Shown here in pieces: positions 31,255-31,911 of a stretch of 64,000 bases of DNA. Origin of the DNA: Escherichia phage EcM-vB1; sequence record PV574017.1, one strand, 5' to 3'. Both the position numbers and the translations under genes were made by a program. Position 1 is the first letter of the stretch. Every line of letters begins with the position of its first letter. The notes under the pieces were generated by a model. The model did not search any database. It was given only the letters and a program-made list of their open reading frames with translations, and was not told the DNA's origin.

Positions 31255-31911
31255 ATGAATGAACAACTACAAGCAACATTAATTGAAGCTATGGGAAGCG
31301 ATCGTAGCGTAGTAAACGCAGCTCGAGTTTCCTTTGGCGTAACCCGTGAAGGTGATTTAAATGAACGTGATGAACGTCTCATCAACTTCCTCGCAAGAGA
31401 GAAGCATGTTACCCCATTCCGACACCCGCAAGTCAGTTTCCGATGCAAAGCACCTATCGCAATTGCGAGACAGCTGGGCAAGCATCAGGTTGGATTCTCG
31501 TGGAACGAAATGTCCCGGCGGTATAAAGATGGAGCAGTTGAAGTCTTCATCCCTAAAGAGATTTTTGCGAGACCTTCGGACCTCCATGCAGGTTCAGGGA
31601 TTCAACTCATCGACGGAGAACGAGCTGAAGCATTAATGTTGATTAACGATGCATATGAAGCTTCTCTAGCAGCATATGACAAGTTGATTGAATTTATTGC
31701 ACCAGAGCAAGCTCGATTTGTTCTTCCTCAGGGGATGATCACTGAGTGGGTGTGGACTGGTTCTTTGTATGGCTGGTTTGAGTTGTGTCGTCAGCGACTC
31801 TCATCTCACGCTCAATATGAAGTTCGAGTGTTTGCTAAATCCGTAGACGAAGAGATGGCTAAGCTCTACCCAATCTCATGGGCAGCTCTGAAGAAAACTT
31901 TGGAGAGTTAA
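31255..31911 (+). CDS. thyX: flavin-dependent thymidylate synthase ThyX homolog with non-canonical signature
   Basis: VNAARVSFGV, KHVTPFRHPQVSF, APIAIARQ, NEMSRRY, SSHAQYEV match ThyX; RHR motif position reads KHQ. Confidence 0.75.
   Translation: MNEQLQATLIEAMGSDRSVVNAARVSFGVTREGDLNERDERLINFLAREKHVTPFRHPQVSFRCKAPIAIARQLGKHQVGFSWNEMSRRYKDGAVEVFIPKEIFARPSDLHAGSGIQLIDGERAEALMLINDAYEASLAAYDKLIEFIAPEQARFVLPQGMITEWVWTGSLYGWFELCRQRLSSHAQYEVRVFAKSVDEEMAKLYPISWAALKKTLES

Follow-up and report, generated by a model that had tools for sequence, protein, structure and literature searches.

The sequence RHR-X7-S is regarded as the hallmark of flavin-dependent thymidylate synthase (ThyX), and was used as a sequence filter in an evolutionary study of this family (PMC2826268). 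The RHR motif, together with the arginine equivalent to R165 of the Thermotoga maritima (Tm) enzyme (R190 in Mycobacterium tuberculosis, R165 in Helicobacter pylori), hydrogen-bonds the phosphates and ribityl of flavin adenine dinucleotide (FAD) (PMC6514825). Tm R78, R80, S88 and R90 hydrogen-bond deoxyuridine monophosphate (dUMP), and in ThyX of the virus PBCV-1 the side chain of residue 89 can fill the dUMP phosphate pocket (PMC3498832). RHR was present in all ThyX structures of the PDB (T. maritima, 6J61, H. pylori, M. tuberculosis, Corynebacterium glutamicum, PBCV-1 and PolB). The thyX-like gene studied here belongs to a 64,000-nucleotide (nt) stretch of Escherichia phage EcM-vB1 (PV574017.1), the whole of which is called the window, and its product read K-H-Q at the site of R-H-R (Table 1). 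Judged from sequence comparison, this gene appears to encode a working flavin-dependent thymidylate synthase making ordinary deoxythymidine monophosphate (dTMP), in a large, mainly viral branch with a rebuilt cofactor-phosphate pocket (probability about 0.78).

The open reading frame (ORF) started with ATG, and AGGA lay 9 nt upstream. Its product of 218 amino acids (aa) matched PF02511 (Thy1) over profile positions 1-190 of 191 (E = 1.9e-43; 148.9 bits, cut-off 24.8), the thyX equivalog TIGR02170 (128 bits, cut-off 87.9) and PHROG 85. The best HMMER match among PDB sequences was 6J61 (E = 2.2e-31), and T. maritima 1KQ4 was matched with E = 6e-25. An AlphaFold2 (AF2) model, obtained from 38 homologues as a ligand-free monomer, had pLDDT 95.1 and pTM 0.89, and the top 50 Foldseek matches in the PDB were all T. 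maritima ThyX (TM score 0.79-0.81; 33% identity). Pfam, TIGR02170 and fold all agreed with the ThyX homology claimed in the original prediction, and the predicted product is a full-length ThyX homologue, an assignment far beyond chance. GenBank records already named the gene thymidylate synthase or ThyX. The 218-aa start was used by other Kuravirus records; PV591328.1 started the gene at the internal Met13 (630 nt; 31255 vs 31283) under the label 'flavin adenine dinucleotide binding protein', and EcK-vB (PV591327.1) had no annotated feature at the match.

HMMER placed the phage sequence ARQLGKHQVGFSWNEMSRRY over ARQWFRHRIA-SYNELSGRY of T. maritima, and MAFFT alignments concurred. K76, H77 and Q78 replaced Tm R78, H79 and R80, and the conserved serine was S87, at a spacing of X8 against the canonical X7. 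The protein failed the RHR-X7-S signature, reading K76-H77-Q78-X8-S87, with only the histidine and the serine kept, the first arginine conservatively changed to lysine and the third arginine lost. The S-G-R-Y of canonical ThyX was S-R-R-Y in the phage protein. The replacement of RHR by KHQ, as originally predicted, was confirmed by the HMMER alignments to solved ThyX structures and by the MAFFT alignments, and the 218-aa protein had no RHR triplet anywhere else. A shifted alignment hiding an RHR was rejected, three independent alignments being in agreement.

Residues were compared in a MAFFT alignment of the phage protein, 119 close homologues, 126 clade representatives, 3 cellular clade members and 7 canonical enzymes. 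Tm R28, S30, H53, Q75, H79, E86, S88, R90, Y91, E144, R147, R174, Q180 and E182 were kept throughout (R24, S26, H51, Q73, H77, E85, S87, R89, Y90, E151, R154, R181, Q187 and E189 in the phage protein, respectively). The equivalents of Tm H53, Q75, E86, S88, R90, Y91, E144, R147 and R174 were identical in the phage protein and in at least 95% of the 126 clade representatives, and serine or threonine at Tm T55 was kept. By the T. maritima literature, these kept residues comprise all those that bind dUMP or act in catalysis.

The changed residues stood mostly at positions described as cofactor-phosphate ligands, and were accompanied by new arginines. The canonical ligands of the FAD phosphates and adenosine monophosphate moiety, Tm R80, R165 and E58, were absent (Q78, Y172 and R56 in the phage protein). 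The Tm E58 position was arginine in 117/119 close relatives and A, R, G or S across the clade representatives. The Tm G89 position, R88 in the phage protein, was arginine in 120/126 clade representatives and in 0/7 canonical enzymes. Tm N163 and L173 were also changed (to S170 and Q180). These patterns suggest that positive charge was relocated and function was not lost, with R80 and R165 replaced by R88 together with R56 or a residue of the R169 type. A strict rule that loss of R80 is paired with gain of arginine at Tm position 89 was rejected: it held for 120/126 representatives in the K-H-Q clade and failed in a sister group with KHVVG, an insert and S-G-R-Y. As this sister group lacked both R80 and R89, the pairing was not absolute, and compensation by R88 is something we infer rather than observe.

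On the evidence of homologous sequences, KHQ is no private oddity and is conserved as the signature of a very large ThyX clade found mostly in viruses. The triplet was KHQ in 119 and KSQ in one of the 120 closest 90%-identity clusters, which extended down to 54% identity and comprised Kuravirus, Chaseviridae (e.g. Yersinia phage PYps23T) and ~90-kb Salmonella phages. Searched exhaustively with phmmer, 1.84 billion representatives yielded 6917 hits, and the best 150 50%-cluster representatives were scored for the triplet. Among these best 150 of 6917, the triplet was KHQ in 69, KHK in 15, RHQ in 5, KHT in 4, RHT in 4 and RHR in 1, with assorted others, and the RHR-less branch made up about 130 of these 150 clusters. 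The clade signature was ARQL-x-[KR]-[HS]-[QKT]-[VI]-G-x-x-W-[NS]-E-x-S-R-R-Y, and at least 597 viral contigs of IMG/VR matched the clade patterns. At 104 loci the motif codons were AAG (49) or AAA (55), CAC (23) or CAT (81), and CAA (55) or CAG (49), with constant amino acids; the use of both synonymous codons at all three positions with the amino acids fixed therefore indicates purifying selection. A private mutation or sequencing error was rejected on the same synonymous turnover and on the constancy of the motif in 119 close homologues. In other phage ThyX lineages this loop read KY[VT] or KHVVG with insertions, or RQR, and roseophage SIO1 had a loop deletion; the mycobacteriophage, Pseudomonas phage JG054 and cyanophage enzymes retained RHR. 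One viral ThyX (locus L110, IMGVR_UViG_3300025683_000014) was interrupted precisely in the RHR-motif loop by an intein-like insertion, after which the sequence resumed as '...HNSYNEVSRRY'.

A pattern scan based on a 13-sequence alignment found 37 loci of the same type in 185,579 species genomes. In a complete 1.79-Mb Spirochaetia chromosome (OZ251568.1), thyX followed sucA/B, lpd, citrate synthase (gltA) and two oxidoreductases, and was convergent with pyrD, a pyrF-pyrE fusion, pyrB and an amidohydrolase read as pyrC; a second spirochaete metagenome-assembled genome (MAG) had the identical arrangement around thyX. The K-H-Q gene abutted pyruvate dehydrogenase E1/E2 genes in three MAGs of SAR202 Chloroflexota, and lay in synteny common to two MAGs in Poribacteria. 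Neighbours identified by eye were an ispH-like gene adjoining the K-H-Q gene in Nitrospinota, and clpX, clpS, fdxA and nth-like genes preceding it in a Rickettsiales MAG. The K-H-Q type thus appears to serve as a housekeeping thyX in some bacteria. In viruses, the gene order was ThyX-PhoH-thioredoxin-RNR beta-RNR alpha (RNR, ribonucleotide reductase) in Pseudomonas phage TC6 and glutaredoxin-ThyX-RNR in Rheinheimera phage Barba (Barba10A). The commonest neighbour at 62 IMG/VR loci was class II RNR (21 loci), followed by T7-like primase-helicase, PolA, DUF3310, RusA, endonuclease I and 5'-3' exonuclease. The viral contexts, as read from gene content, are ordinary modules for replication and deoxynucleoside triphosphate supply.

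In the genome under study, the gene is an ordinary nucleotide-supply gene. The window was a genome of Kuravirus (phiEco32-like, Gordonclarkvirinae) of E. coli with 42% GC, the GC of E. coli being ~51%. Escherichia phage EcP-vB (PV591328.1) matched window positions 26000-38000 with 100% identity, and SU10, NJ01, 172-1, MN03 and the BASEL phages Bas90 and Bas91 matched them with 92-97%. Of the nucleotide module in which the original prediction had placed the gene, the dCTP deaminase, deoxynucleoside monophosphate (dNMP) kinase, metallophosphoesterase, SLOG and Dam genes were present, and the 'HAD-like' gene matched no annotated family in Pfam or PHROG. The named neighbours were spread across ~16 kb with no tight cluster. 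The SLOG/DUF2493-like gene looked split, with an overlapping ORF of 67 aa in another frame that resembled the C-terminal half; either a frameshift, programmed slippage or an error of sequencing may underlie the split (42203-42594).

Table 1. Positions in the window of the thyX-like gene, of its residues and of other features
Feature	Position	Strand	Evidence or remark
thyX-like gene, K-H-Q clade	31255..31911	+	218 aa; flavin-dependent thymidylate synthase homologue
R56 (Tm E58)	31420..31422	+	E in 7/7 canonical enzymes, never in clade
K76-H77-Q78, site of canonical R-H-R	31480..31488	+	HMMER and MAFFT alignments
K76 (Tm R78)	31480-82	+	Clade: K 100/126, R 25
H77 (Tm H79)	31483-85	+	
Q78 (Tm R80)	31486-88	+	Clade: Q/K/T/H, R 1/126
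S87-R88-R89-Y90 (canonical S-G-R-Y)	31513..31524	+	S87, R89 and Y90 conserved dUMP-site residues; R88 clade-specific extra arginine
S87, conserved serine	31513-15	+	
Loop F104-S114, IFARPSDLHAGS	31564..31596	+	Degenerate W-R-x-R-P-x3-K-Q-G-S loop
R154 (Tm R147), dUMP phosphate ligand	31714..31716	+	R in 126/126 representatives, 7/7 canonical
Y172 (Tm R165)			Clade: Y/A/L/M
R181 (Tm R174), uracil-binding arginine	31795..31797	+	R in 126/126 representatives, 7/7 canonical
Thioredoxin, immediate upstream neighbour of thyX	30964..31239	+	Pfam PF00085, E = 2.2e-13
dCTP deaminase (supplies dUTP/dUMP)	28232..28765	+	Pfam DCD, E = 3.6e-34; TIGR02274, 107.6 bits vs cut-off 92.8
dNMP kinase (dTMP to dTDP)	42591..43484	+	PHROG 139, E = 5e-54
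ORF of anti-restriction nuclease PHROG	31928-32161		PHROG annotation
PhoH	32822-33559		
'HAD-like' gene	38065-38457		
Metallophosphoesterase	39067-39570		
SLOG, 85 aa	42203-42460		Pfam YAcAr/SLOG
ORF overlapping SLOG	42391-42594		
Phage Dam (N6-adenine methyltransferase)	44283-44795		
Amidoligase cluster, phiEco32 type	17145-23420		
GGACT	about 23927-24346		
Nucleotidyltransferase, 437 aa	26909-28222		PHROG 12715
Nlig-Ia domain, 109 aa	32324-32653		E = 2e-35

A mechanism consistent with these observations would be the reaction of dUMP, methylenetetrahydrofolate and a reductant to dTMP and tetrahydrofolate, with uracil-ring chemistry unchanged because all dUMP-contacting and catalytic residues were retained. 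The cofactor-phosphate pocket would have been rebuilt by loss of Tm R80, R165 and E58 and change of the first RHR arginine to lysine, and phosphate binding would be taken over by new arginines at Tm G89 (R88) and at Tm E58 (R56) or, in other members, Tm N169. The dCTP deaminase, ThyX, dNMP kinase and, probably, the adjacent thioredoxin may form a supply line from dCTP through dUTP/dUMP and dTMP to dTDP. Such a line would raise dT at the expense of dC among the deoxynucleotides available for phage replication, and reduced folate would not be consumed to dihydrofolate by ThyX.

Several points weigh against synthesis of ordinary dTMP by this protein. Mutagenesis of M. tuberculosis ThyX was reported to show a need for the RHR motif in tritium-release activity (PMC2386288), R80 was described as a direct dUMP ligand (PMC3498832), and the literature and PDB searches found no solved structure or published assay of a K-H-Q enzyme; the literature search likewise found no phiEco32 ThyX study, phage ThyX assay or discussion of non-RHR ThyX. 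The subclade of Kuravirus, Chaseviridae and Felix-like phages (119 sequences) carried further changes in the loop W-R-x-R-P-x3-K-Q-G-S (R to F104, K to H111 and Q to A112), the signature of which was retained by the rest of the K-H-Q clade and by most canonical ThyX. T. maritima ThyX also lacks this signature, and the signature is therefore not required for activity and its degeneration was not read as loss of function. Finally, Gordonclarkvirinae are reported to be remarkably resistant to restriction-modification with no known modification pathway (PMC11990801), and the window had 10 EcoRI, 30 EcoRV, 10 EcoKI and 96 EcoP1 sites. Loss of sites was rejected as the cause of the resistance, as sites of all four enzymes remained.

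It is possible, at clearly lower odds, that dTMP is still made and the cofactor is handled differently, through flavin mononucleotide (FMN) or loosely held FAD, owing to the loss of the ADP-side ligands, or with a reductant other than free NADPH (thioredoxin, flavodoxin). This would plausibly be a refinement of dTMP synthesis and compatible with it. At least two FAD-phosphate contacts (Tm R80 and R165) were replaced together clade-wide, along with E58; the new arginines (R88 and R56/R176-type), however, could simply restore FAD binding, and the middle histidine of the motif and the serine or threonine at Tm T55 were retained. As to the reductant, thioredoxin or glutaredoxin lay next to or near ThyX of this type in Kuravirus, TC6 and Barba, and no RNR was found in annotated Kuravirus genomes, so that thioredoxin was without its usual phage-encoded client. 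In TC6 and Barba, on the other hand, the redoxin adjoined RNR, the usual client, and host RNR is another possible client of the Kuravirus thioredoxin.

An altered product is improbable. The enzyme would here stop after methylene transfer to dUMP (or dCMP), omitting the final hydride transfer, and 5-hydroxymethyl-dUMP or another C5-substituted pyrimidine would enter the DNA and cause the restriction resistance. The form of this proposal confined to the enterobacterial-phage subclade (Kuravirus, Chaseviridae and Felix-like), in which the rebuilt flavin pocket and the degenerate loop would release 5-hydroxymethyl-dUMP or other C5-substituted dUMP, is if anything slightly more improbable. 5-Hydroxymethyl-dUMP has been trapped as a derivative of a ThyX reaction intermediate, so that altered chemistry is conceivable. 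The resistance of Gordonclarkvirinae, unaccounted for by site loss, would fit an altered product, as would the phage's own dNMP kinase, often encoded in phages with modified nucleotides, and the extra loop changes near the active site in the Kuravirus subclade. Nevertheless, K-H-Q also occurred in housekeeping genes of cells and in hundreds of unrelated phages, and no uracil, phosphate or catalytic contact was lost. Furthermore, all known thymidine hypermodifications begin with a ThyA-family hydroxymethylase (PMC8989533); neither ThyA nor a ThyA-type hydroxymethylase nor a recognisable downstream DNA-modifying enzyme was found among the ~30 window ORFs scanned with Pfam or PHROGs or in the deposited annotations, many small ORFs and the amidoligase/ATP-grasp/GATase cluster (17145-23420) being without an assigned target. 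Over the whole window (1-64000), six-base palindromes had a median observed/expected ratio of 0.81 against 1.00 (p = 1.2e-7), and 11/64 were absent, including GAGCTC (0 vs 16.2 expected), CTGCAG (0 vs 12.9) and GGATCC. CCWGG was observed 3 times against 72 expected, and GATC 133 times against 237-290. The avoidance of T-containing palindromes and of CCWGG therefore indicates phage DNA exposed to restriction, and counts against an altered product. The same direction is given by the termini of phiEco32, mapped by restriction profiling and subcloning, and by the nanopore sequencing of YF01 (PMC9965538). The phage Dam methylase and the annotated anti-restriction gene offer other routes to resistance. 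The non-thymine product that the original prediction had thought conceivable was thus unsupported, given the clade-wide K-H-Q, the housekeeping copies, the retained substrate contacts and the palindrome avoidance, and such a product is unlikely.

A catalytically dead ThyX relic kept for another role (nucleotide binding, regulation) is very improbable, for although the signature motif needed in M. tuberculosis ThyX (PMC2386288) was missing, hundreds of diverged sequences kept all other active-site residues strictly and showed synonymous turnover in the codons of the motif, an apparent housekeeping copy lay beside pyrimidine biosynthesis genes, and the model was full length and confidently folded.

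The BASEL study speculated on deoxyuridine-containing DNA (dU-DNA) in Gordonclarkvirinae, with reference to dCTP deaminase and the nucleotidyltransferase, and did not mention ThyX (PMC11990801). A conserved thymidylate synthase under purifying selection, as dTMP synthesis by the K-H-Q protein would have it, argues against this published suggestion of dU instead of T. The nucleotidyltransferase, cited by the BASEL authors as a possible DNA-modification gene (PMC11990801), was a conserved 437-aa protein encoded between a polymerase exonuclease fragment and dCTP deaminase, and its match to the PolyA_pol head domain was weak (E = 6e-4, below cut-off). Elsewhere in the window, the amidoligase cluster comprised a COOH-NH2 ligase type 2, Amidoligase_2, a GATase-domain protein and an ATP-grasp/RimK-like fragment, and was followed by GGACT; a Cellvibrionaceae MAG contig (L027) had a similar amidoligase set upstream of a K-H-Q ThyX. 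The Nlig-Ia ORF was a stand-alone NAD+-binding Ia domain of NAD-dependent DNA ligase without the catalytic domain.

The general interest of these observations is modest and rests in the subfamily. RHR-X7-S is taken to define ThyX, yet every substrate-side residue is kept in a very large branch without RHR, which takes in at least 597 viral contigs as well as genes with an apparent housekeeping role in marine SAR202, Poribacteria, Nitrospinota and Spirochaetia. The K-H-Q clade would serve as a natural experiment for the binding of flavin and of the dUMP phosphate by ThyX, and for inhibitors aimed at the RHR pocket. If the dU-DNA idea falls, the restriction resistance of Gordonclarkvirinae needs another explanation; a modified thymidine would provide it, and an altered product, if true, would be the first ThyX-derived DNA base modification.

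Among known systems, T. maritima ThyX (TM0449; 1KQ4/1O26) and 6J61 were alike to the phage protein in fold and in full-length sequence match. T. maritima ThyX has RHR-X7-S, E58, G89 and R165, whereas the phage protein has KHQ-X8-S, R56, R88 and Y172. The PBCV-1 protein A674R (2CFA, 4FZB), known from both biochemistry and structure, is likewise a viral ThyX; the virus also encodes a dCTP deaminase, a thioredoxin and a nucleotide kinase, its GC content is below that of its host, and dCTP deaminase and ThyX of PBCV-1 feed this low-GC genome (PMC10142491). PBCV-1 ThyX differed in its canonical RHR, its S-Q-R-Y and its distance (E = 1.7e-7), and belonged to the cyanophage/chlorovirus branch. PolB, which we take PDB entry 4P5A to be, is a ThyX-like UMP C5-methylase of polyoxin biosynthesis and, to our knowledge, the one known ThyX homologue acting on a different substrate. 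It has the Thy1 fold of the phage protein but keeps RHR, and was nearer to actinobacterial and mycobacteriophage ThyX (phage Shifa, E = 1.4e-56) than to the phage protein (E = 2e-16). A PolB-like substrate switch was rejected on the weaker match to 4P5A (E = 2e-16, vs 2e-31 for bona fide ThyX) and on the location in a phage replication module with no antibiotic cluster. The dUMP and dCMP hydroxymethylases of the ThyA family (SPO1, T4, ViI and M6) likewise perform a phage one-carbon addition at pyrimidine C5, with a fold and mechanism unrelated to those of ThyX.

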